Below, one piece after another: positions 5,961 to 18,114 of a stretch of 64,000 bases of DNA. The translations under genes were made by a program, and so were the position numbers. This DNA is from Deltaproteobacteria bacterium (GTDB lineage: Bacteria; Myxococcota; Kuafuiibacteriia; Kuafuiibacteriales; Kuafuiibacteriaceae), in assembly GCA_040218735.1 (NCBI GenBank), contig JAVJQW010000067.1, positions 32,001-96,000 of the forward strand, read 5' to 3'. The notes beneath the pieces are model-generated. The model searched no databases, was not told where the DNA came from, and saw only the letters and a program-made list of their open reading frames with translations. Each line of letters starts with the position of its first letter. Positions within the stretch are counted from its first letter, which is position 1.

Positions 5961-7652
5961 TCAGGTGTGGCGGGAGGGGCCTCCGAGGACCGGCTGGAGG
6001 ATGGCCGATATCCCCATGACCGCCCCGCAGCCGATCACGTTGTACCAGAGGAACCCGAGGGACGACCCGAGGAACAGCCCCACGACGATGACCTGGGCGA
6101 TGAGGGCCGCGACGAACACCGGGGTCGCGGTGACACGCTTCAGGAAGAACGCGACGAGGAACAGCCCGAGCACGGTCCCATAGAAGATCGACCCCAGGAT
6201 GTTCACGGCCTCGATCAGGTTGTCGAGGAGCGACGCAAAACTCGCGAAGGCGAGCGCGACCCCGCCCCACATCATCGTAAACAGCTTCGACGCCCGCAGC
6301 GCGTGGGCGTCGGACGCGTCGCGCTTGAAGATGCGTCGGTAGAGATCGATCGTCGTCGTCGACCCGAGCGCGTTGAGCTCGCTCGCCGTGCTGCTCATCG
6401 CCGCGGAGAGGATCACCGCCACCAGCAGCCCGACCAGCCCGACCGGCAGGTACTCGAGGACGAACGCGATGAACACGTAGTCGGCGTCCTTCGTCTCGGC
6501 TTCGGGGAGCGCCTCCGCCACGACCCGCTTCGCTTCGGCGCGCACCTCGGACAGCTCGGCACCGGCGGCGGCGAGCGCGGCCTTCTTGTCATCGACCGGG
6601 CCGCCCTCGTCGAGCGCCGCGACGTACCGCTCGGCGGCGACGCGCTGCACCTCGAAGGCGGCGTCGTACCGGGACTGGACGGTGGCCATCTGCTCCGCCC
6701 GCTCCGTCTCGTACACCGCCGCGAGCGTGGGCTCGTTGAAGAACACGGGCGGCTTCACGAAGACGTAGAACACGAACACGAGCACACCCGTGAACAGGAT
6801 CAGCGCCTGCATCGGGATCTTGAACATCCCGTTGAACAGGAGCCCGAGGCGGCTCTCCGTCACCGATCGCCCCGTGAGGTAGCGCTGCACCTGCGACTGG
6901 TCCGTGCCGAAGTACGACAGCGCGAGGAAGAAGCCGCCCGTGATCCCCGACCAGAAGCTGTAGCGATTCTCGAAGTCGAAGGAGAAGTCGACGACGTTCA
7001 TGCGCCCGAGCGCACCGGCGACCTTGACCGCGTTGGGCAGCGAGACGGTGTCCGAGAGGCGATGCCCGATCACGATTGCGGCGATCACCATGCCCGTCAT
7101 CATGACGACCATCTGGTGCTTCTGGGTCTGGCTGACCATCTTGGTCCCGCCCGACACCGTGTAGACGATCACCACGAGGCCGATCCCGAGGATCGTGAGC
7201 CGCAGCGACCATCCGAGGATCGAGCTCAGGATGATCGCCGGCGCGTAGATCGTGATCCCCGCGGCGAGCCCGCGCTGCACGAGGAACAGGATCGCGCCGA
7301 GGTAGCGGACCTTCGCGTCGAAGCGCCGCTCCAGGTACTCGTACGCGGTGTAGACCTTCAGCCTGTAGTAGATCGGGATGAAGACCGCGCTGATGACGAT
7401 CATCGCGAGCGGCAGCCCGAAGTAGAACTGCACGAAGCGCATCCCGTCTTCGTAGGCCTGGCCCGGCGTCGACAGGAACGTAATCGCGCTCGCCTGCGTC
7501 GCCATCACCGACAGCCCGATCGTCGGCCACGTCAGCGAGTTGCCGCCCTTCAGGTACCCGTCGATGTCCTTCGTGCCGCGGGTGCGCCACGCGCCGTAGC
7601 CGAGGATCGCGAGGATCGTCCCCACCAGCACACACCAGTCGAGCGTCGTCAC
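5961..7652 (-). CDS. Sodium:solute symporter (SSS/SLC5 family)
   Basis: GTG at 7652 overlaps the upstream TGA; many TM helices; SVMATQASAITF, GTDQSQVQRYL, AAMSSTASELNAL. Confidence 0.92.
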   Translation of the reverse strand: MTTLDWCVLVGTILAILGYGAWRTRGTKDIDGYLKGGNSLTWPTIGLSVMATQASAITFLSTPGQAYEDGMRFVQFYFGLPLAMIVISAVFIPIYYRLKVYTAYEYLERRFDAKVRYLGAILFLVQRGLAAGITIYAPAIILSSILGWSLRLTILGIGLVVIVYTVSGGTKMVSQTQKHQMVVMMTGMVIAAIVIGHRLSDTVSLPNAVKVAGALGRMNVVDFSFDFENRYSFWSGITGGFFLALSYFGTDQSQVQRYLTGRSVTESRLGLLFNGMFKIPMQALILFTGVLVFVFYVFVKPPVFFNEPTLAAVYETERAEQMATVQSRYDAAFEVQRVAAERYVAALDEGGPVDDKKAALAAAGAELSEVRAEAKRVVAEALPEAETKDADYVFIAFVLEYLPVGLVGLLVAVILSAAMSSTASELNALGSTTTIDLYRRIFKRDASDAHALRASKLFTMMWGGVALAFASFASLLDNLIEAVNILGSIFYGTVLGLFLVAFFLKRVTATPVFVAALIAQVIVVGLFLGSSLGFLWYNVIGCGAVMGISAILQPVLGGPSRHT

Positions 7653-7807
7653 GAGGCCCACCACGTGACGACCGCGAACCCGGCGACGAGGAGCGCGAGC
7701 TGCAGGACGAGGACGAGGTACACGTTCCGCCAGCGCCCGAGGATGGGCGGCGGCGCCTCGGGCGCGTCCTGTTCGCCCGGACCGCTCTGGGGATCGGCCT
7801 CCGTCAC
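7649..7807 (-). CDS. Small (52 aa) membrane protein, probable SSS-transporter accessory subunit
   Basis: MTEADPQSGPGEQDAPEAPPPILGRWRNVYLVLVLQLALLVAGFAVVTWWAS; GTGA overlaps with both neighbours. Confidence 0.7.
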   Translation of the reverse strand: MTEADPQSGPGEQDAPEAPPPILGRWRNVYLVLVLQLALLVAGFAVVTWWAS

Positions 7808-10290
7808 GGCGCGCCGAGCCCCACGAGGTTCACGAGCAGCCGGTACGCGCCGGGCACCCCCGCCGGGAGCTGCCGGAAGAACGAGACACCCGTGTACACA
7901 AACGTGCCCTTGCCGTGCTTCGCGACGAGGAGCGCCCCTCGTAGCGGCGCCTCGCCCGCGTCGTTCATCTCGAGGAGCGGCCGATAACGTTCGTCCCAGG
8001 TCTTGGCGAAGTACAGCCCACGCTCCTGAACCCAGCCCGTGAAGTCGGCGGCGGTGATCACGTTCGGGCTCGAGAAGAGGCGGTGCGCGGGGTCGACCAG
8101 CGTGACGGGCGCGTTCTCGTCCGTCACACGCTCGCGATCGATCTGGAACGGGAACGGCCCGACCGGGTCCGTGAGCGTCGTCCACCGGTTGCTCGTGTTG
8201 TACTGCGCGACGAGTGTTCCGCCCGCGGCGACCCACTTCATCAGCGCGTCGTGCGCGGGCGCCAGATCCCTGCGGACGTTGAACGCCCGGACGCCGATCA
8301 CGATCGCACCGTACCGCTCCAGCGCGCCGCGCCGGAGGGACTCTGCGTCGATCTCCTCGACCTCCAGGCCTACGCTCCTCAGGTCATCCGCGACGGTGTC
8401 CCCCGAACCCGGCAGGTAACCGACGCGGACCGACGGGAGCCGCAGCTGCAGCGGCACCAGCCGAAGCTCGGCGACCTGCAAGACAGCTTGCACCGGGATG
8501 TGGTTGTGGTCGATCAGGTCGTAGCGGATCGACGAAGCGCGTCCGGCGACCGTCGCCGTCGGCCGAACCACCGTCGGCTCGGCCCCCTTCGGCGCCGTCA
8601 CCGAGAAGGCCAGCACCTGCTCCGCCCCGGCCTTCACGAACCGCACCTCGTGGGCGGCGGGTGTGACCTTCCACCCCTTCGGAACGGGGAGCGCGATCCG
8701 CGCCGCGACACCGTCCACCGCGGCGCGCGCGGTGATGCGGACGGTGCGCGCCTCCCCGTTCGGGAGCATCGCGTGCGCAGCGAGCGGCGTGACGGTGACC
8801 GGGGGGAGGATCAGGAATCGACGCTCGCGTTCGCCGAGGACCCGATCCGTCGTCACGTGCACCACGGGCCGCGTCAGCGCGAACCGCGAGGCGCCGCTCG
8901 ACAACACGATCCGTACGGTGCGCGCGGGCGGGCCTTCGGGTTCGCCGACCCGCTCGGGGGCCGCCTCGTAGCGGCCGCTCCCGGGGGGCGCGGTGAGCCA
9001 ATACGGGGACGACGGTGCCGCGTCGGTCGGAATGCGCAGCGTCTTCTCGAGCCTCTGCACTGCGTTGGTCTCGAGCACCTTCTTGTCGGGCTCGGGGGAG
9101 TCGCCCCAGTCGATCGATTCGAGCGCGATCTTCGCGGGGCGTCGCTTCACGATTTCGATTTCGACGGCGACCGAGGAGCCCGGCGTCGCCTCCGCACGCT
9201 CGGCGACGGCGCGGACGTACAACCCGGCGGCGTCGGCGATCATCTCCGCGGTCCGGTCGCGTGCGTCGAGCACCCGCGGCACCGGCTGCTTCGCCGCGAG
9301 CCGGTCGAGCGCCGCGAAGGCGGCGAGGAGGCCCGGGAGTGCATCTTCCGGGCGGTCCGAGCGGTACGCCCGACGCGCGCGTTCGAGCGAGGTCCGCACT
9401 TTCGTCGCTCCGCGAATGCGACGCCAGCTCGTGTCGATCCCTTCGAAGAGGTCCTTGTCGGGGCGACGCCCCGCGATCGGTTCGAAGTACTCCCAGATCG
9501 GACCACGCACCCCGGCCGACCCAAAGCCCTGGCTCTTGTGCATGCTTCGGCTCGCCGCCGCGAGCTCTCCGTAGGACTGACCGAGGCGCGGGTCGTACGC
9601 GCCAACGTCGAGCGCGAGGTAGGCGTCGAGCCCGTCGTCGTCGTCGCGTCCCCAGCGCGGGACGTTCAGGAGCAACCGCTGGGCGCGCCACGTCTGGCCC
9701 CCACGTTCGAGCTGCTCCGGGAATCGCTTCGGATCCGCGGCCGCCTCGAAGGCCTCGTGCGCGAGGATCGCCGACGCGGTGTGGTGTCCGTGGTTGGGCG
9801 GAGACTCGGTGAAGCGCGTGATGACGACGTCGGGTCTAAACGACCGGATGACCCACACGACGTCCGCGAGGATCGCGTCGTGGCCCCATGTCGCGAACGT
9901 CTCCTCGGCGGTCTTGGAGTAGCCGAAGTCGCGCGCACGTGTGAAGCGCTGTTCGGCGCCGTCGATCCGCCGCGCCGCGAGCAGCTCCTGCGTTCGGATG
10001 ACACCGAGCAGCGCGGCCTGCTCCGACCCGATCAGGTTCTGACCGCCGCCCCCGCGCGTCATGGACAGGTAGGCGACCTGGAGGTGCTTCGCGTTGGCGA
10101 GGTATCCGAGGAGGCGCGTGTTCTCGTCGTCGGGGTGCGCCGCGACGTAGAGGACACGCCCCGTGTTCAAGAGCCGCTCGATCGCGACCTGCTGAGCCCC
10201 CGTGTGCATGACCTCCGCGCCCTCCGCTTCGTGCACGACCGCTCCGAACACGAGGCTCGAAGTCATCGATAGCGTCCACCAGCCCTTCAT
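7804..10290 (-). CDS. LmbE/PIG-L family Zn deacetylase/amidase with Ig-like (NEW3-type) and C-terminal GATase-like domains, probably exported
   Basis: AAHPDDE, R.QELLAARRIDG, DFGYSK, NHGHH; hydrophobic N-terminus resembling a signal peptide. Confidence 0.88.
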   Translation of the reverse strand: MKGWWTLSMTSSLVFGAVVHEAEGAEVMHTGAQQVAIERLLNTGRVLYVAAHPDDENTRLLGYLANAKHLQVAYLSMTRGGGGQNLIGSEQAALLGVIRTQELLAARRIDGAEQRFTRARDFGYSKTAEETFATWGHDAILADVVWVIRSFRPDVVITRFTESPPNHGHHTASAILAHEAFEAAADPKRFPEQLERGGQTWRAQRLLLNVPRWGRDDDDGLDAYLALDVGAYDPRLGQSYGELAAASRSMHKSQGFGSAGVRGPIWEYFEPIAGRRPDKDLFEGIDTSWRRIRGATKVRTSLERARRAYRSDRPEDALPGLLAAFAALDRLAAKQPVPRVLDARDRTAEMIADAAGLYVRAVAERAEATPGSSVAVEIEIVKRRPAKIALESIDWGDSPEPDKKVLETNAVQRLEKTLRIPTDAAPSSPYWLTAPPGSGRYEAAPERVGEPEGPPARTVRIVLSSGASRFALTRPVVHVTTDRVLGERERRFLILPPVTVTPLAAHAMLPNGEARTVRITARAAVDGVAARIALPVPKGWKVTPAAHEVRFVKAGAEQVLAFSVTAPKGAEPTVVRPTATVAGRASSIRYDLIDHNHIPVQAVLQVAELRLVPLQLRLPSVRVGYLPGSGDTVADDLRSVGLEVEEIDAESLRRGALERYGAIVIGVRAFNVRRDLAPAHDALMKWVAAGGTLVAQYNTSNRWTTLTDPVGPFPFQIDRERVTDENAPVTLVDPAHRLFSSPNVITAADFTGWVQERGLYFAKTWDERYRPLLEMNDAGEAPLRGALLVAKHGKGTFVYTGVSFFRQLPAGVPGAYRLLVNLVGLGAP

Positions 10291-11450
10291 GCGCCTCCCT
10301 CCGCCGCCACGACCCGCGCGTAGTAGCGCTCGTAGCGATCGACCGCCGGCCCCACGCCGTAACGGGCTTCGACGTGTCTGCGCGCCGCGGCGCCCATCGC
10401 GATGCGGCGCCTATCGTCCGCGAGCAGCTCGTCCGCGGCGTCCGCGAGCGCCTCGACGTCGCGGTTTTCGATCAACACGCCGGTCTCTTGGTGCTGTACG
10501 ACCTCGGGGAGCCCCCCGACGGCGTACGCCAGGACCGGCAGGCCGCAGCTCGCCGCCTCGAGCGCCGCGAGCCCGAAGCTCTCCATCTCGCTCGTCAGCA
10601 GGAACAGATCGGCGTGCGCGAGGTAGCCGGCGACGTCCTCGCTCGCGCCGACGAACGCGACGTTCGCCCCGAGGCCGTGCGCCCGGACCGCCTCTTCGAC
10701 GGCGGGCCGGTCCGGGCCGTCACCGACCAGGAGCAATCGCGCGCGGCGCCGCTCCCTCAGCCGGGCGAGCACGGCGACGAGGTCCGCGGTGCGCTTCACG
10801 GGCCGAAAGTTCGAGATGTGCACGAGGACCGGCGCGCCGACGTCCGCGCCCGGCCCGAAACACACGTCGAGCTTCGAGCGGTCACGTTCGAACGGGGGCC
10901 GAAAGGCCGCGGTGTCGACGAAGTTCTCGATCACCTCCACGTGCGGAGCGTCGAGCGCGAAGGCCTCGCACGCGGCCTGCTGGAGATAACGCGACGGCGT
11001 CGTCACCCCCGCCGCGGCGCGGATCGCAAAGCCGTTCACGACGCGATCCGGCGGCGTGTTCCCGACCCGCGTGACGTCGGTGCCATGCAAAGTGATGATG
11101 ACCTTCGGCGCTCGTGCGCCGAGGACCTGCTGCGCCAGATAGGCGCTGACGGCGTGCGGCACCGCGTAGTGAGCGTGGACGAGATCGAGGCCCCTGCTCT
11201 GCGCGAGCTCGACGAGCTTCGAGGTGACCGCCAGGCCGTACAGCGGCTGCTCGAACAGCGGGTAGGCGGCCGGCGACAGCGTGTGCAGCTCGACACCCGA
11301 CTCTCGGCCGAGGCGGTGCGGCGCCTCGCTCGCGACGACGTGAACCTCGTGCCCGCGGGCCGCCATGCTCCGCGCGAGCTCGGTGGCGACGACGCCGCTG
11401 CCCCCGTACGACGAGAAGCAGACGTAGGCGATGCGCAGTCGCCGGGTCAC
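10287..11450 (-). CDS. bshA: N-acetyl-alpha-D-glucosaminyl L-malate synthase (GT4)
   Basis: YGGSGVVATELA, HAHYAVPHA, TLHGTD, HISNFRPVKR, ESFGLAALEA; GTG at 11450 overlaps the bshB1 stop. Confidence 0.93.
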   Translation of the reverse strand: MTRRLRIAYVCFSSYGGSGVVATELARSMAARGHEVHVVASEAPHRLGRESGVELHTLSPAAYPLFEQPLYGLAVTSKLVELAQSRGLDLVHAHYAVPHAVSAYLAQQVLGARAPKVIITLHGTDVTRVGNTPPDRVVNGFAIRAAAGVTTPSRYLQQAACEAFALDAPHVEVIENFVDTAAFRPPFERDRSKLDVCFGPGADVGAPVLVHISNFRPVKRTADLVAVLARLRERRRARLLLVGDGPDRPAVEEAVRAHGLGANVAFVGASEDVAGYLAHADLFLLTSEMESFGLAALEAASCGLPVLAYAVGGLPEVVQHQETGVLIENRDVEALADAADELLADDRRRIAMGAAARRHVEARYGVGPAVDRYERYYARVVAAEGGA

Positions 11451-12244
11451 CGACGCCCCTCGATCACAAACGCGTGCGGATAGTCGTGGCGCCGAAAGTG
11501 CGCGACCGGGTCGTCGATCCCGAGCACCTCGACGACGCGGAGGGGCTCGCCGTGGGCGACGCCGATCATGCTCCCGAAGTAGCGGTCCCGCGCGTCGAGC
11601 GCGTCGAGCGCACCGGGGGCGCCCACCAGCGTCGGCGTCGCGGGGCGTGCGACCTGACTCGCGTAGCACGCGATCGCCTCGCGTTTGCGCTCCGCCGCCT
11701 CGGTCGTGTCGACCACGAACGTCGGCGACATCGTGTGCCGCTGCGCGTAGTACAAGACCCGACGCACGCGGTGCGGCGCGAGCGCGGCGGGAGTCTCGAA
11801 CCGCGCGACGTGGGCGAAGAACAGCGCCTTGGTGAGGAGCTCACTGGCCGCGGAGTGGTCCGGGTGTCGAGCCTCGCTCCAGGGGATGAGGACGAGCTCC
11901 GGCTTCAGGCGGCGGATCGCCTCCACGACGCGCACGACCTGCGACCGGGCGAGGCGAGCGGGCGCTTCGAGGTCGTGTCCGGACCACGGCGACAGCCACG
12001 TGTCGGGGAGGCCGAGGTTTTCGCGCACGGAGAGCCCGAGCACCTTCGCCGCCGCTGCGGCCTCGGCGCGTCGGGTGGCGACGTCGCCGTTGGACGCGCG
12101 CTCGCCCTCCGTGAGATCGAGGACCGCGGTGGTGTGCCCGAGGTCCGCCATGCGGATGAGGATGCCGCCGCAGAACAGCTCGACGTCGTCCGGGTGGGGT
12201 CCGATCGCGAGGAGATCGACGCCGCCGTCCGTCCTCGAGGTCAC
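11447..12244 (-). CDS. bshB1: Bacillithiol biosynthesis deacetylase (GlcNAc-Mal deacetylase)
   Basis: DLLAIGPHPDDVELFCGG, DLTEGE, RENLGLPD, RHPDH, YASQ; located between bshC and bshA. Confidence 0.9.
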   Translation of the reverse strand: MTSRTDGGVDLLAIGPHPDDVELFCGGILIRMADLGHTTAVLDLTEGERASNGDVATRRAEAAAAAKVLGLSVRENLGLPDTWLSPWSGHDLEAPARLARSQVVRVVEAIRRLKPELVLIPWSEARHPDHSAASELLTKALFFAHVARFETPAALAPHRVRRVLYYAQRHTMSPTFVVDTTEAAERKREAIACYASQVARPATPTLVGAPGALDALDARDRYFGSMIGVAHGEPLRVVEVLGIDDPVAHFRRHDYPHAFVIEGRR

Positions 12245-13824
12245 CACGTGATCTCCTGGAGCGCGCCTTCGAAGGGGCGACAGCGCGCGAGGACATCTTC
12301 GACCACACGCTCCGCGGAGTAACGCGCGGCGAAGTAAGGCAGGCCGAAGACCCGCTCCTGCGGCGCGTCGTTCGGCTGGAGCGCCCACCGAATCCGTCGC
12401 GCGCGATCGACGCGGTCTTCGTCCTCGTGCAGGACCGCTCGCTCGTACTTGTCGGTGAAGCGTTGGATGGTCCCTTCGATCGTCGCTGCGGTCTTGGCGT
12501 GCGCGCGTTCGAGTCCGCCGAGGCCGCGCCACGCAGGCGCCGCTTCGTCGAGCGCGCTCTTCATGCGCGCGACGAGCTCGGCCTCGAGCGCTGCACGGCC
12601 CCGCCGCGTCGCACCGCCCGACGCCTTCTTCAGGAGCTCGTCCAGCGGCGCCGCGGCGTCGTCCGCCGTCAGGTTCAACGACTGGAGTGTGCGGGCGGTG
12701 CGCGTCTCGACGATCGTGAAGCGCGCGCGCGGCACGATCACCGGCATGGGGAGGTCGAACGCCTCGTAGACCGGGCCCATCTGCGCGAAGTAGTCGATCT
12801 CTCCCGGCCCGCCGACATACGCGGCTGTCGGGAACCACGTGTCCTGAAGGATGGGCCTCAGGAGCGCGCTCGTGCTGAAGGCACGCGGGTTCGACTCCAG
12901 CTCTGCGAGCAGCGTCGACGCCGTCGAACGCCCCTCCCCGCCGACGACCGTGTACACGTCCCCGTCGCGGTCGAGGCGGTGCCGCGGCCCCTCTGGGCCA
13001 TCCGGGTGGAAGAACGACAGCGGCGCTCCGGGGCGGACGTAGACCTGAGTGTCGAAGCCGAGCTCCGTGAGCCGGGCACAACGCTCGTCGAGCCCGCGCG
13101 CGATGACGTCCGCGGACGCGATCGCGCGGCGATGCACCGGCGCGGCCGCCGCGGCGAGCCCTCGGTCGCGGGGGTCGATCACCAAGAGCCCCGACGGCCC
13201 GAACAGCTCGCGGAGCCACCCCGCGAACGCATCGGGCCACGTCGCGCCGACGTGGTAGTGACGCCGGATCACATCGAGGGTGGCGGCCGCGTGCGGCAGG
13301 TTGCCGATCGTCGCCTCGAGCTCCGCGATGACCTCGTCGATCGCCGGATCGAAGCGACGGTGCGCCATCGAGATCGGCGAAGCGTCCGGCGCCTCGACGC
13401 GGAGCGGACGAGGTTCGGCGGCGCCCTGCGGGATCCACGTGGTCGCGACCTCGTCGAAGTCGTGATCCTCGGTCTGCAGCCAGAAGATCGGGACGACGGG
13501 GACGCCGCAGGCAGACTGGAGCGCGCGGGCCGCGACCACCGCCGAGGCCGCCTTGTACACGGTGTACAGCGGGCCGAGGAACAGCCCGACCTGCTGCCCC
13601 GTGAGCACCGCCGCCGCGCCGCCGCGCGCGAGCACATCGAGGTGCGCGCGGCAGGCGTCGCCGGTCGCGCTGTGGCGCTCGAGCGCCGCGAGGACGGCGT
13701 CCGGAACGCGACGTGTGGCGGCGTCCCGGACAGCGGCTTCACGATCGCTGGCCGCCCTCGCCTGGCGCTTCAGGAGGTGACCGCACCGTTCGTCGCCCGA
13801 CGTGTAAGCTTGCGAGAATCGCAT
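12241..13824 (-). CDS. bshC: Bacillithiol biosynthesis cysteine-adding enzyme
   Basis: TGQQVGLFLGPLYTVYK, FWLQTEDHDFDE, LLRPILQD, YVGGPGEIDYFAQ, PQER. Confidence 0.93.
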   Translation of the reverse strand: MRFSQAYTSGDERCGHLLKRQARAASDREAAVRDAATRRVPDAVLAALERHSATGDACRAHLDVLARGGAAAVLTGQQVGLFLGPLYTVYKAASAVVAARALQSACGVPVVPIFWLQTEDHDFDEVATTWIPQGAAEPRPLRVEAPDASPISMAHRRFDPAIDEVIAELEATIGNLPHAAATLDVIRRHYHVGATWPDAFAGWLRELFGPSGLLVIDPRDRGLAAAAAPVHRRAIASADVIARGLDERCARLTELGFDTQVYVRPGAPLSFFHPDGPEGPRHRLDRDGDVYTVVGGEGRSTASTLLAELESNPRAFSTSALLRPILQDTWFPTAAYVGGPGEIDYFAQMGPVYEAFDLPMPVIVPRARFTIVETRTARTLQSLNLTADDAAAPLDELLKKASGGATRRGRAALEAELVARMKSALDEAAPAWRGLGGLERAHAKTAATIEGTIQRFTDKYERAVLHEDEDRVDRARRIRWALQPNDAPQERVFGLPYFAARYSAERVVEDVLARCRPFEGALQEITW

Positions 13825-13852
13825 CGTCGGCTCGGGAGCGTCCTCGACGACC

Positions 13853-14695
13853 CTACTTCCAGGTCTTCGCGGCCTCTTCGATGCGCGGCTTGTAGAAGGC
13901 GAAGGCACCGCTCTTGTCGCCCTTCTTCAGGGCGCTCGCGGCGAGGGCTCCCGCCTCCTTCTTCTTGCCCATCTTCTCGAGGATCTGCGCCTTCACCCAC
14001 TCGTTGCGCCACGTGGCCTGGATGCGAATGGACGTGTCGATGTACTCGAGCGCCTTCTTGGTGTCGCCGTGCTCGAGGAGGTACTGGGCCGAACGCAGGT
14101 GCGGCAGCGGCGCGCCGTTCACGGCCGACTCGATGTTGGCGAGGACCTGGGCGTGGGTGTCGACCTGAATCGGGATCGAGACGCGCTGGTCGGCCCACTC
14201 CAGATCGAGCCGCGTCGCGTCGTCGGTCGTGTCGGAGAACAAAAACGTTAGCCGCTCACGCGCGGAAGAGCGCGCCGGCTTCACGGTCACCCGTGCGGCG
14301 TCCTTCTTCTTGTCGTAATTCGAGCTGCCCCACAGCTCCGTCTCGCGGTTCAGGATGACGGTCCACTGCTTGGCGGTCGGGATCGTGAAGACGGAGTAGT
14401 CGCCCTTCGGCACGGCCTTGCCGCCGAACTTCACGTCGCGCGAAAACGAGATCTTCGTGGCCTTGTTGGCGCCGGTTCGCCAGACCTCACCGTAGGGGAC
14501 GAGCCCCCCGAAGATCTTCCGGCCCTTCACGCCGGGGCTGCTGTAGGTGATCGCGACGTCGGTCAGGCCGACGCGTTGATGCACCTCGGCCGCGGGGCTG
14601 GCGGCCGGTGTCTCCGGGCCCGCCTGGGCGATCGCGAGGGAAGGTGTGGCCAGCGCAAACGCCAGTGCGAAGTGAGGGGCAGAAAGTCGATACAT
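13853..14695 (-). CDS. DUF2911 family exported protein with C-terminal TPR-like helices
   Basis: Signal peptide; SP.A.V.Q.VGLTDV.ITYSSPGVKGRKIFGGLVPYGEVWRTGAN. Confidence 0.85.
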   Translation of the reverse strand: MYRLSAPHFALAFALATPSLAIAQAGPETPAASPAAEVHQRVGLTDVAITYSSPGVKGRKIFGGLVPYGEVWRTGANKATKISFSRDVKFGGKAVPKGDYSVFTIPTAKQWTVILNRETELWGSSNYDKKKDAARVTVKPARSSARERLTFLFSDTTDDATRLDLEWADQRVSIPIQVDTHAQVLANIESAVNGAPLPHLRSAQYLLEHGDTKKALEYIDTSIRIQATWRNEWVKAQILEKMGKKKEAGALAASALKKGDKSGAFAFYKPRIEEAAKTWK

Positions 14696-14803: not shown

Positions 14804-16285
14804 TCAGAAGACACGCAAGCGGTCCGCGACAGCGGCGCCCGAGAGGACGGCGCGGGCCTGCTCGGCGCGCCGATCGATCACCTTCTGGATGAAGGCCATC
14901 GCCTGCGGACGCGCGCGCACGATGGTGAGGAAGTCGTCGCGTGGGAGCTCGATGGCGAAGCACTTCGTGGTCGCGCGGACGCTCCCCATCGCGGGTTTGT
15001 CGGTCAGGATCGACATCTCTCCGACCACGTCGGAGGGGCCGAGCATCCCGACGCGCACGGGCTTGCCGTCCCGCTCGACCAGCGCCTCGGCGGTGCCGGC
15101 GAGGAGGACGAGGAGGCTGCTGGCGGGGGTGCCGGACCGAACGAGGAGCGCGCCGGGCTCGACTTCGAGGAACGAGAACCGGCGCCCGAGCGCCATTTTG
15201 TCGTTGTCGGAGAGGCCCTGGAACAGCGGGTTCTCCGCGAGGAGGCGCTCGACGCTGCGGTTTCGGAAGAACCGCAGCAGCACGGTGAGCACGCCGGGGT
15301 CGTCCTCGATGAGCTCGTGGATCATCCCGCGGTCGATCGCGATGACCTGCGCGTCCGTCAGCGCGAGGATCGTCGCGCTGCGGGGTTGGTCGGTGAGGAG
15401 CGCGATCTCGCCGAAGAAGTCGCCCTCCTTCAGCTTGGAGATCCCGCGCCGCGGCGGGCCCTCGTCGATGACGCCGACGGTGCCCTCCGCGATCACGTAG
15501 AGCTGATCACCCGGCTCGCCCTGACGAAACAGCGTCTGCTCCTTCGCGAGGTTCACGATGCTCGCCGCCATCAACAGCTGCCCGAAGCTCGACTCCGGCA
15601 GCTGCGCGAACAGCGAAGTCTCGGAGAGCGCCTTGTTCGTTTGCTCGGCGAGGCGGAACTCCTCCTCGACCGCGAGCACCGCGGCGTCCTCCACCGCGAA
15701 GCCGCGGTTTTGTTCGGTCACCGCGTCGGGGTTGGCCGCCGCGAACAGCGGCGTCGTGGCGGTGACACCGGGGCCCTCCTCGACGATGTCCTCCAGCGGG
15801 ATGGTGTAGATGCTCGCCTCGTCGTCGCTGCGCGTCAGGTCGCGCGTGGCGCCCGGGACGGCGTCCTTCAGCGTGACACTCGACAGCGCCGAGCCGCGCT
15901 CCCACTCGCCCGTGATCGCCTTGGGCGGCGGGCGTTGCCGAACGGTGGTGGATCCGGGGCGCTGGCGGTGCGCGTTCCGGAGCTTCTCGATCCGCGCGAG
16001 GGTCTCGGGGTGCCGCGGCGCGATCTCGAGCAGCTGCTTCGAGACGGTCGCGGACTTCAGGTAGTCGCCGGTCTTTTCGTACAGACGCGCGGCGCGGTTG
16101 AGGGCGTCGACCTCTTCCTTCGGGCGGTTCAGTCGGCGGTAGAGCTTCGCGGTGCGGCGCGGCCAACCCGGGTCGTGGGGGTCGGCGGCTTCGAGCTGCA
16201 GGCTCAGACGCAGCGCCTCTTCGAGACGCCCCGCCTTCACGGCAGCGACGGCGGCGTCGCTGAGCGCCTTCAGCTTCTCGCTCAT
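14804..16285 (-). CDS. TPR plus tandem cyclic-nucleotide-binding domain protein
   Basis: N-terminal TPR-like helices; LFRQGEPGDQLYVI..G...FFGEIALL...PRSATI; second, more degenerate copy VGEMSIL...PAMGSV. Confidence 0.85.
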   Translation of the reverse strand: MSEKLKALSDAAVAAVKAGRLEEALRLSLQLEAADPHDPGWPRRTAKLYRRLNRPKEEVDALNRAARLYEKTGDYLKSATVSKQLLEIAPRHPETLARIEKLRNAHRQRPGSTTVRQRPPPKAITGEWERGSALSSVTLKDAVPGATRDLTRSDDEASIYTIPLEDIVEEGPGVTATTPLFAAANPDAVTEQNRGFAVEDAAVLAVEEEFRLAEQTNKALSETSLFAQLPESSFGQLLMAASIVNLAKEQTLFRQGEPGDQLYVIAEGTVGVIDEGPPRRGISKLKEGDFFGEIALLTDQPRSATILALTDAQVIAIDRGMIHELIEDDPGVLTVLLRFFRNRSVERLLAENPLFQGLSDNDKMALGRRFSFLEVEPGALLVRSGTPASSLLVLLAGTAEALVERDGKPVRVGMLGPSDVVGEMSILTDKPAMGSVRATTKCFAIELPRDDFLTIVRARPQAMAFIQKVIDRRAEQARAVLSGAAVADRLRVF

Positions 16286-16320
16286 GGCCGGCGGATTCTA
16301 CCCAATCTTCTCGCGCGCCG

Positions 16321-18114
16321 TCAGCGCTTGCGGGGGCGCGGGAGATCGTACTTCTCGATCTTCTTCACCAGCGTCTGCCGGGAGATGCCGAGCGCGCGGG
16401 CGGCGCGGGTCTGGTTCTGGGCGTGGGCCTCCAGCGCGCGAACGACCCGCTCGCGCTCCTCGGCCTCGCGCGGGGTCAACGGCCGCCCACCCGGCCCCAC
16501 CGGGACCACCGTCATCGCGTGCACGCTCGCGTCCGAGGTCTTGGGGAGCGGCGGGCTCGCGGCCTGCGGCGGTGCGAGCCAGGTCGCGGACATCTTCTCC
16601 ACCGGGAGGTGCGCGCGACCGATGCGGCCGTCCGTCGACAGGAGCACGGCGCGCTCCATGGCGTTCTTCAGCTCGCGCAGATTCCCCGGCCAGTCGTAGC
16701 GCTCGAGGATCGCCTGGGCCTCCGGCTCGATCTTCGGCGGCGCGGTGTTCGCGTCTTCGGCGGCGCGCTCCAGGAACGCGCGCGCGAAGGTCATCAGCTC
16801 GCCCTTGCGCTCGCGCAGCGGCGGGATCGTGAGGGAGACGCCGCACAGCCGGAAGTACAGATCCTCACGGAAGGTGTTCTCGCGGATGCCCTTCTCCAGG
16901 TCACGGTTGGTGGCGGAGACGTAGCGGACGTCGATCGCCTTCGGCGTCAGCGCGCCGAGGCGCTGCACTTCGCCCTGCTCCAGGACCCGGAGCAACTTCA
17001 CTTGCAACGGCAGCGGGAGCTCGCCGAGCTCGTCGAGGAACACCGTGCCGCCGTGGGCGTGTTCGAGGAGGCCCGGCTTGGGCTGGTCGGCGCCGGTGAA
17101 GGCGCCCTTTTCGTACCCGAACAGCTCGCTCTCCAGGAGGTTGGGCGAGAACGCGCCGCAGTTCAGTCGAACGAACGGTTTGCTCGCGCGCGGGGAGCGT
17201 CGGTGGATCTCGGCCGCGAGGACCTCCTTGCCGACACCCGTCTCGCCGAGGATGAGGACGCCGATCTTCCCGCGCGCGACACGTTCGGCGACGCGGAACA
17301 GGTCGACCATCGCGTGGTCCTCGACGATCGGGCGATCCTCGAAGATCGAGTGGTTCGAGCTATCCGCAACCGAGGTTGCGCCGCGCGCGCGTTGGCGGGC
17401 GGCGGCGATCAAGGCGTCGGGGGTGCGGCCGTCCTTGGGGAACTGCGCGACGCCGACGCGCGCCGGGGTGTCGTACCCGTCGAGGTGGGCGATCAGGTCC
17501 GCGGTGAGGCGAGAGGCGCGGTCCCCGCCCCCGAAGAGCAGCACCTCGTACTGGCCCTCCGCGTAGCGACCGATCAGGTCGGTCGGTTCGGCGAGGAGCG
17601 AGAGTGTGCCTTCGACGGCTTCGCGGTCCGCGCCGGTGGGGGCGTCGAGCCAGAGGACGGCGAGCCCGAGCGCGCCGCGTCCTTCCAGGCCGCAGCTCTC
17701 CTCCAGGCGCATCTCGAAGTAGCCCTGCGGCCAGAGGCGACGCGCGCGCGGGCGGTTCGTCTGGCGCTGGACGACGAGCAGAGTCCCGGCGATTTCGACG
17801 ACCTGCCCGGGTTCGAGCAGCGTGCGCTCACCCCCGTTCAGCTCGCGCCCGCTCACGAAGGTGCCGTTGGTACCACCGAGGTCCTCGATGTAGACGTCGT
17901 CGTCGACCTCGATGCGCGCGTGCTGCCGCGACACGAGGGGGTCGTCGATGAAGACGTCGGCGGAGTCGAGGCGGCCGATGGTCAGCGCGCCCGAGTCCGG
18001 GAGTGGGTAGGTCGCGACCGAACCGTCGCCGATGACGGCGAGGAACAGACGTTCGTCGTCGGTGCCGAGCACCGGCAGCGACTCGACGGTGGTGCCGTAA
18101 ACTGTCTCCTCCAA
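16321..18114 (-). CDS. FHA-domain sigma54-dependent transcriptional activator (FHA, GGDEF-like, AAA+, Fis HTH)
   Basis: FHA IGR...VSRQHA...GTNGT; Walker A GETGVGKE, GAFTGA, FLDELGEL, WPGNLREL; NQTRAARALGISR. Confidence 0.93.
   Translation of the reverse strand: MEETVYGTTVESLPVLGTDDERLFLAVIGDGSVATYPLPDSGALTIGRLDSADVFIDDPLVSRQHARIEVDDDVYIEDLGGTNGTFVSGRELNGGERTLLEPGQVVEIAGTLLVVQRQTNRPRARRLWPQGYFEMRLEESCGLEGRGALGLAVLWLDAPTGADREAVEGTLSLLAEPTDLIGRYAEGQYEVLLFGGGDRASRLTADLIAHLDGYDTPARVGVAQFPKDGRTPDALIAAARQRARGATSVADSSNHSIFEDRPIVEDHAMVDLFRVAERVARGKIGVLILGETGVGKEVLAAEIHRRSPRASKPFVRLNCGAFSPNLLESELFGYEKGAFTGADQPKPGLLEHAHGGTVFLDELGELPLPLQVKLLRVLEQGEVQRLGALTPKAIDVRYVSATNRDLEKGIRENTFREDLYFRLCGVSLTIPPLRERKGELMTFARAFLERAAEDANTAPPKIEPEAQAILERYDWPGNLRELKNAMERAVLLSTDGRIGRAHLPVEKMSATWLAPPQAASPPLPKTSDASVHAMTVVPVGPGGRPLTPREAEERERVVRALEAHAQNQTRAARALGISRQTLVKKIEKYDLPRPRKR

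Follow-up and report, generated by a model that had tools for sequence, protein, structure and literature searches.

Among the low-molecular-weight thiols of bacteria, those of the bacillithiol type have been argued to have the widest distribution (PMC6282198). The PIG-L enzymes that serve thiol pathways act as deacetylases and S-conjugate amidases and yield glucosamine-malate (GlcN-malate) for recycling, and the single BshB of Staphylococcus aureus possesses both activities; a 2018 review that covers this recycling describes the import or export of bacillithiol (BSH) or BSH disulfide as unclear (PMC5790435). The known enzymes Bca/BshB2 and Mca are cytoplasmic, single-domain proteins of approx. 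220-290 residues. Here, we describe a locus within a stretch of 64,000 nucleotides (hereafter the window, meaning that whole stretch) from an 11.6-Mb genome of the phylum Myxococcota. Seven genes across positions 5961-14695, every one on the minus strand, join a bacillithiol operon (bshC, bshB1, and bshA) to a conserved four-gene envelope module, which consists of a PIG-L hydrolase, a one-helix microprotein, a sodium:solute symporter of the SSS family, and a DUF2911 protein with TPR-like repeats. In our estimate, there is an even chance that this module represents the turnover or salvage arm of the BSH pathway outside the cytoplasm.

Genomic association of the module with bacillithiol genes

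To survey co-occurrence, identical genome samples of each phylum were searched at E ≤ 1e-50 for the hydrolase and at E ≤ 1e-20 for the BshC family; they comprised 301 genomes of the window's phylum, 251 of Bacteroidota, and 151 of Acidobacteriota. The tallies take in unpublished genomes: G195 is counted within the 101 genomes given next and the 16 discussed further below, and G603 and G578 within the 69. In the window's phylum, the hydrolase is found in 103/301 genomes and BshC in 103/301, and the two coincide in 101 (hydrolase only in 2, BshC only in 2, neither in 196). The distributions are matched even in families where they are patchy, with hydrolase and BshC each present in 2/40 genomes of f14, 1/8 of f26, 1/7 of f30, and 4/5 of f22. 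Moreover, in the two hydrolase-only genomes (G088 and G286) the locus lies at a contig edge, and the immediate neighbour of the hydrolase is a BshA that passes its cut-off. In Acidobacteriota, both proteins are present in 69 genomes, the hydrolase only in 8, BshC only in 24, and neither in 50; BshC thus accompanies 69 of the 77 hydrolase carriers, compared with 24 of the 74 non-carriers. The corresponding numbers for Bacteroidota are 70, 0, 171, and 10.

When the three phyla are pooled, BshC is found in 240 of 250 hydrolase carriers, and BshC and/or BshA in 248. Eight of the ten carriers that lack a BshC match possess BshA over the cut-off, including six from Acidobacteriota (G657, G669, G693, G704, G671, and G592). 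According to the first-pass annotation of this DNA, its proposal would be refuted if the trio of hydrolase, small protein, and symporter were common in genomes lacking bshA and bshC; only 2 of the 250 carriers lack both. Taken together, the genomic tie of the module to BSH is firm, and we hold this with high confidence. In three of the Acidobacteriota genomes, very weak collinear matches to BshC models were also observed (G657:C59:103412-104179, G669:C2:3250970-3252052, and G693:C1:1780656-1781780), with 2-3 matches each at E 1e-7 to 1e-10 in frames of 490-640 aa. From their sequences, these frames may belong to a highly divergent BshC lineage overlooked by standard models.

The association is also physical. 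The window's seven proteins were placed by tblastn in 20 loci of its phylum, one per genus and picked, non-randomly, for family spread. The hydrolase adjoins the symporter in 20/20 of these loci, bshA is present in 20/20, bshC in 19/20 (the exception is a contig of 10.7 kb), and DUF2911 in 18/20, while bshB1 is found in 9/20 and is missing from 11/20. Two arrangements are equally frequent: in 10/20 loci the genes are collinear as in the window, and in the other 10/20 bshC-(bshB1)-bshA is divergent from hydrolase-microprotein-symporter. The hydrolase, the symporter, and DUF2911 are also grouped in 6/7 Bacteroidota loci and one Acidobacteriota locus, in each case with no bsh gene within 10 kb; the contig of the remaining Bacteroidota locus is short. 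BshC is encoded elsewhere in the genome in 4/4 genomes tested, though below the cut-off in one. Among 16 Acidobacteriota loci, 13 have the symporter adjoining the hydrolase and 6 include bshA or bshC in the stretch; three of these 6 represent a distant hydrolase subfamily (~900 aa). In a hydrolase tree built by a quick method only, this subfamily forms a separate clade, and 3/6 of its loci are near bshC or bshA; its members (L074-L079, from G570, G702, G690, G598, G636, and G648) show 31-37% identity. One further locus of the Acidobacteriota sample (L070, G555:C8:62000-81999) contains all genes of the cluster, ordered exactly as in the window. The G555 hydrolase nests within the clade of the window's phylum in the quick tree, which suggests either that the cluster moved between phyla as a unit or that the contig was misbinned.

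In the window itself, the gene order and the five 4-nt overlaps listed by the first-pass annotation were all read directly in the sequence. Specifically, bshB1 starts with GTG inside the bshC stop (GTGA, 12244-12241), and the subsequent stop/start overlaps are GTGA at 11450-11447 (bshB1/bshA), ATGA at 10290-10287 (bshA/hydrolase), GTGA at 7807-7804 (hydrolase/microprotein), and GTGA at 7652-7649 (microprotein/symporter). The gap that had been noted upstream was likewise confirmed: the DUF2911 gene ends in a TAG stop at 13855-13853, followed by 28 nt to the bshC ATG at 13824. BshA, BshB1, and BshC each pass their curated NCBIfam equivalog cut-off (Table 1), and BshC additionally matches the Pfam families Rossmann-like_BshC and CC_BshC. 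A promoter scan of the cluster yielded 0 promoters above the shuffle background, and a terminator scan yielded 4 terminator-like sites versus 3.2 expected from shuffles.

Table 1. Genes of the cluster (window coordinates) and regions of the hydrolase (residue numbers)
Feature	Position	Strand	Size, match, or structure
DUF2911 protein	13853-14695	-	280 aa; Pfam PF11138 185.6 bits
bshC, bacillithiol cysteine-adding enzyme	12241-13824	-	527 aa; TIGR03998 421.5 vs cut-off 265.8
bshB1, GlcNAc-malate deacetylase	11447-12244	-	265 aa; TIGR04001 247.2 vs cut-off 182.5
bshA, GlcNAc-malate synthase	10287-11450	-	387 aa; TIGR03999 405.9 vs cut-off 273.7
PIG-L hydrolase, signal-peptide-like N-terminus, multidomain	7804-10290	-	828 aa; PF02585 59 bits
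One-helix microprotein	7649-7807	-	52 aa; no Pfam/NCBIfam family match
SSS sodium:solute symporter	5961-7652	-	563 aa; TIGR00813 234.4 vs cut-off 184
Hydrolase N-terminus	residues 1-27		disordered in model, signal-peptide-like
Hydrolase catalytic domain	residues 41-288		PIG-L/LmbE zinc-hydrolase fold
Hydrolase helical region	residues 290-355		helices
Hydrolase middle region	residues 357-614		beta-sandwiches
Hydrolase C-terminal domain	residues 619-828		ThuA-like (class I glutamine-amidotransferase-like) domain

The flanks of the cluster are unrelated to it; they encode an FG-GAP protein, a cNMP-binding protein, and a sigma-54 activator. The latter two lie upstream on the same strand (14804-18114), as a protein with two cNMP domains and an activator with an FHA domain, and they are not kept in related loci, as determined by clustering the frames of 44 loci. 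The same clustering of all frames revealed no further conserved neighbour, exporter included.

The hydrolase and its partner proteins

More than 8000 database relatives of the hydrolase were scored, and the database names for this protein are only "PIG-L family deacetylase" or "LmbE family". Its PF02585 match spans residues 47-180 and lies above the gathering cut-off (28.2 bits). In the structure model (pLDDT 89.5, pTM 0.88), the domain at residues 41-288 aligns with MshB (4ewl: Z 20.8, rmsd 3.1, 230 residues), with diacetylchitobiose deacetylases (Z 19.1-19.6), and with Bacillus subtilis BshB (6p2t: Z 17.9, rmsd 2.8, 198 residues). Across 52 aligned homologues, H52, P53, D54, D55, E56, H167, and H170 are invariant, which correspond to the H-P-D-D-E and H-x-x-H motifs; from work on MshB and BshB, we take these positions to have catalytic and metal-binding roles. 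His12, Asp15, and His113 of BshB are named in the review (PMC5790435). The hydrolase scores far below the thiol-pathway equivalogs, namely Mca (51.7 vs cut-off 277.15), MshB (32.3 vs 224.35), BshB1 (24.2 vs 182.5), and BshB2 (22.2 vs 195.25). It is only remotely similar to the operon's BshB1 (best BLASTP E-value 0.085) and, judged by sequence, is no recent copy of it. Two attempts to read the substrate from BshB structures gave little: alignment to solved chains returned only LnmX and a BC1534 fragment, and no relevant paper on a BshB substrate-analogue structure was found in open full text.

The C-terminal domain of the hydrolase resembles STM3548 (2gk3, Z 17.5), the ThuA-like structure 1t0b (Z 16.0), and 4jqs (Z 15.0), and residues 619-828 have no Pfam match even at E ≤ 10. 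Among the columns invariant in the 52 homologues, no Cys is found in this domain. Its invariant polar residues (window 7807-8430) include D631, R668, N671, Q696, Y697, R721, E725, and D749; W753, Q755, E756, R757, D777, E780, and R806 are also invariant. Such conservation of polar residues suggests a second functional site; the ThuA-like domain may provide a second catalytic or ligand-binding site.

The hydrolase appears to be exported and to act outside the cytoplasm. A hydrophobic N-terminal stretch (at least 7 of 10 residues) precedes the mature domain in 40 of 48 full-length homologues, and the N-termini encoded in 22 loci, Bacteroidota included, look like signal peptides when read by eye; these observations are consistent with the earlier suggestion that the second PIG-L enzyme of the operon is exported. 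It was also noted that M28 (window 10207-10209) corresponds to a Met found at the start of the mature domain in many homologues, within the consensus E-x-x-M-x-A-G, and that six database entries begin there. An internal start at this position, which would produce a cytoplasmic isoform, was considered and set aside, as the Met is absent in Bacteroidota and in three genomes whose only PIG-L protein is the hydrolase (G022, G169, and G070).

Of 37 related loci, drawn from three phyla, 35 have a one-helix open reading frame between the hydrolase and symporter genes; in 24 of 30, its stop and the start of the symporter share a 4-nt overlap. Alignment of 29 microprotein sequences shows an invariant W26 and a Y30 with at least 90% conservation, both in the motif P-P-x-L-G-x-W-x-x-x-Y that is followed by the helix. 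Models of the microprotein in a complex with the symporter scored 0.81, 0.82, and 0.82, compared with 0.00 for the best control; the runs share at least 80% of contacts, and the pLDDT of the partner is 71-72. Of 80 solved complexes, 58 attain the mark applied to such models, as do 2 of 110 mismatched pairs; with own alignments used here, these rates are a rough guide only. The microprotein is thus predicted to be an accessory subunit that binds the symporter.

In addition to the general SSS model (Table 1), the symporter matches PF00474 (139.2 vs 22.8), and it lies below the cut-offs of the named SSS equivalogs (PutP, PanF, and PRK10484). Both SSS models match it in two stretches that flank an Ala/Glu-rich insert of ~100 residues (approx. 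residues 300-400, window 6450-6750), which is not found in ordinary SSS carriers. The nearest solved chains are those of NIS, SMVT, and SMCT1 (E 1e-44 to 1e-46), followed by SiaT (1e-39); this weakly suggests a carrier closer to carboxylate/anion than to glucose transporters, which would fit an acidic solute. The symporter belongs to a clade confined to this module. Among the 20 genomes of the window's family, the occurrence of this clade coincides exactly with that of the hydrolase, in 13.

The first-pass annotation had regarded the hydrolase, the small protein, and the symporter as a trio and had left DUF2911 outside. This view has to be revised, as DUF2911 is the fourth member of the module: besides its presence in 18/20 loci of the phylum, it is found in 12 of the 13 module genomes of the window's family and in 0 of the 7 others, and a DUF2911 homologue lies beside the symporter in Bacteroidota loci. 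The window's protein matches PF11138 at residues 33-176 (gathering cut-off 27) and consists of a signal-peptide-like N-terminus, a beta domain (~34-177), and three TPR-like repeats (180-280). In its model (pLDDT 90.8), TPR structures align over residues 184-280 with Z 11-13.7. The beta domain has no Foldseek match to solved structures at E ≤ 0.001, and a wide VIA search was filled by TPR matches.

These features of the hydrolase and symporter bear on whether the module might handle another GlcNAc compound (chitobiose or cell-wall amino sugars), with the bsh link arising from UDP-GlcNAc supply or co-regulation. The PIG-L domain aligns with diacetylchitobiose deacetylases approximately as well as with MshB and lies below every thiol-pathway equivalog cut-off, and the Bacteroidota module is not beside bsh genes. 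However, a general amino-sugar system would be expected in many genomes without BSH genes, and in the window's phylum BshC-less genomes lack the hydrolase, save for the two contig-edge cases with BshA. Moreover, the bsh linkage recurs in two gene orders and in the distant subfamily, and the symporter is, albeit weakly, nearer to NIS, SMVT, SMCT1, and SiaT than to glucose carriers. We consider this the least likely of the explanations discussed here.

Proposed salvage of bacillithiol and the clusters without bshB1

The gene order, the family assignments, the link to bshA and bshC, the fold, and the conserved catalytic motif are direct observations; what we infer is export (from the N-terminal sequence), a substrate, a transported solute, a direction of flux, and a role for DUF2911. 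In the proposed salvage mechanism, the exported hydrolase would act outside the cytoplasm on compounds built on GlcN-malate, freeing their glucosamine of its N-acyl group. The group removed could be cysteine, a cysteine S-conjugate, or a disulfide from BSH, or acetyl from N-acetylglucosamine-malate (GlcNAc-malate). The symporter would then re-import the product, most simply GlcN-malate, and BshC would re-load it with cysteine. An exported PIG-L fold points to an N-acyl-glucosamine compound outside the cytoplasm as the substrate, the locking of the symporter to the hydrolase implies uptake of the product, and the tie to bshC suggests GlcN-malate as the shared intermediate.

The same chemistry could be directed at foreign material. 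The module might scavenge BSH-type compounds from other bacteria, or from the prey of predatory myxobacteria, so that the symporter imports GlcN-malate or cysteine-bearing pieces for the cell's own BSH pathway or as sources of sulfur and carbon. The beta-sandwich and ThuA-like domains, which recall those of secreted carbohydrate-active proteins, are paired with an importer; no dedicated exporter is found in the cluster; the module is optional in Bacteroidota (70/251); and BSH producers are widespread in soil phyla (241/251 Bacteroidota and 93/151 Acidobacteriota genomes sampled). If the module served nutrition alone, however, a cell could do without bshA and bshC of its own, and hardly any carrier lacks both; the fusion into one operon with the biosynthetic genes suggests an intermediate in common. 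Scavenging of this kind is therefore judged very unlikely.

A further possibility is raised by the clusters that lack bshB1. The first-pass annotation had assumed that BshB1 already covers the biosynthetic deacetylation; this holds for the window, but not generally. BshB1 (TIGR04001, E ≤ 1e-10) was not found in 5/5 genomes whose cluster lacks bshB1, and in such clusters DUF2911, bshC, bshA, the hydrolase, the microprotein, and the symporter are tightly packed, with no other gene. Furthermore, among the 103 genomes of the window's phylum that carry the hydrolase, 16 (completeness 90-99%) have a single PF02585 match; this match was checked by position to be the hydrolase in G022, G105, and G169 and was assigned to it by count alone in the remaining 13. 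Because bshB1 is missing from 11/20 clusters and the hydrolase is the sole PIG-L protein in these 16 genomes, a biosynthetic role has to be weighed, in which the hydrolase itself may supply GlcN-malate.

According to this alternative, the hydrolase would take the place of BshB as the GlcNAc-malate deacetylase of the pathway, at any rate in lineages that lack BshB1: GlcNAc-malate made by BshA would exit the cytoplasm and be deacetylated outside, and GlcN-malate would return via the symporter to BshC. The presence of the hydrolase in 101 of the 103 BshC genomes of the window's phylum would fit this role, as would the reported ability of one enzyme to hold deacetylase and amidase functions (PMC5790435). 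On the other hand, no GlcNAc-malate exporter is conserved nearby, the window also holds a full BshB1, and 171 of 241 Bacteroidota BshC genomes lack the hydrolase, which argues that it is not generally needed. The enzymes of the sole-PIG-L genomes are also signal-peptide-like at their N-termini, and, to our knowledge, no thiol cofactor is known to be made by way of such a periplasmic detour. The gap could also be filled by a deacetylase from a different family, for which no search was made. We regard a periplasmic BshB as unlikely, though both it and salvage are better supported than scavenging or the handling of another amino sugar. As single PIG-L enzymes can be both deacetylase and amidase, salvage and periplasmic deacetylation are not mutually exclusive.

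Several points weigh against turnover or salvage of BSH by the module. The sole-PIG-L genomes fit a biosynthetic role at least as well as salvage. The substrate of the hydrolase is unreadable from homology, since its scores are so far under the Mca, BshB1, and BshB2 cut-offs, and its export is read from the N-terminus alone. No exporter of BSH or its conjugates that would account for an external substrate is conserved in the neighbourhoods. The co-occurrence in Bacteroidota (BshC in 70/70 hydrolase carriers) is uninformative, as the base rate of BshC there is 241/251 (96%), and in this phylum the module has no bsh gene within 10 kb. Two Acidobacteriota genomes (G636 and G648) lack both BshA and BshC, though their hydrolase relatives are only 31-33% identical. 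Finally, related genomes are non-independent samples, and the counts are thus given without statistics.

If salvage by the module is extended to a general scheme, Gram-negative producers would run a BSH cycle across the inner membrane: BSH, its disulfide, or its conjugates would enter the periplasm and be cleaved by the exported hydrolase, GlcN-malate would return via the microprotein-bearing symporter, and BshC would recharge it with cysteine. In sole-PIG-L lineages, biosynthesis itself would take a route through the periplasm. This extended scheme is tentative, and we believe it somewhat doubtful. The source genome (G000) encodes a glutathione synthetase (404.4 vs cut-off 299 bits; C67:283713-284636), whereas its best Bdr/YpdA match stays below the cut-off (163 vs 340 bits) and YtxJ gave no match. 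By these gene contents, the organism may make both glutathione and bacillithiol, and BSH may have a specialised role here, as a thiol of the envelope or a carrier of cysteine and not as the chief buffer of the cytoplasm.

Comparison with known systems

The first-pass annotation knew of no described BSH salvage pathway of this type, and none was found in a full-text literature search; nor did the search, which left subscription journals and supplements outside, find any paper linking the module genes. The module is a testable candidate for the missing transport and turnover of BSH in Gram-negative phyla. If the proposed function is correct, it would provide a role for four uncharacterised families, namely the ~830-aa PIG-L protein, the symporter clade, the new microprotein, and DUF2911. 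How cells that possess bshA and bshC but no cytoplasmic PIG-L deacetylase make BSH is a further question to which the module leads.

The hydrolase shares with Bca/BshB2 and Mca the zinc-hydrolase fold, the H-P-D-D-E and H-x-x-H positions, and a genomic tie to a glucosamine-based thiol. By analogy, the expected chemistry would also be alike, that is, cleavage of the N-acyl group from glucosamine to give GlcN-malate for re-use (PMC5790435). In contrast to those enzymes, the hydrolase has 828 residues, a signal-peptide-like N-terminus, and additional beta-sandwich and ThuA-like domains, it falls far below the equivalog cut-offs, and it comes with a symporter and a microprotein, usually also with DUF2911. 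With the operon's BshB1 it shares the Pfam family PF02585 and the pathway neighbourhood; unlike the hydrolase, BshB1 lacks a signal peptide and additional domains, and 11 of the 20 related clusters do without it.

SSS symporters with a small upstream membrane partner are represented by ActP/YjcH, PanF/YhdT, and VC_2705-type carriers with DUF4212. As in ActP/YjcH-type pairs, a one-helix protein is encoded directly upstream of the carrier, with a stop/start overlap, and is predicted by modelling to pack against it. In contrast to these pairs, the microprotein matches no Pfam or NCBIfam family and the carrier lies below the named SSS equivalogs.

A functional parallel is the periplasmic breakdown of glutathione, in which gamma-glutamyltranspeptidase cleaves the thiol and a transporter re-imports the pieces. 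For BSH, unlike glutathione, external breakdown with re-import is not an established process. The logic proposed here would be alike, in that the cell's own thiol is cleaved outside and its parts are recovered, although the enzyme fold and the substrates are unrelated. If this is true, the module would be the first system described for the transport and turnover of BSH and would parallel the gamma-glutamyl cycle.

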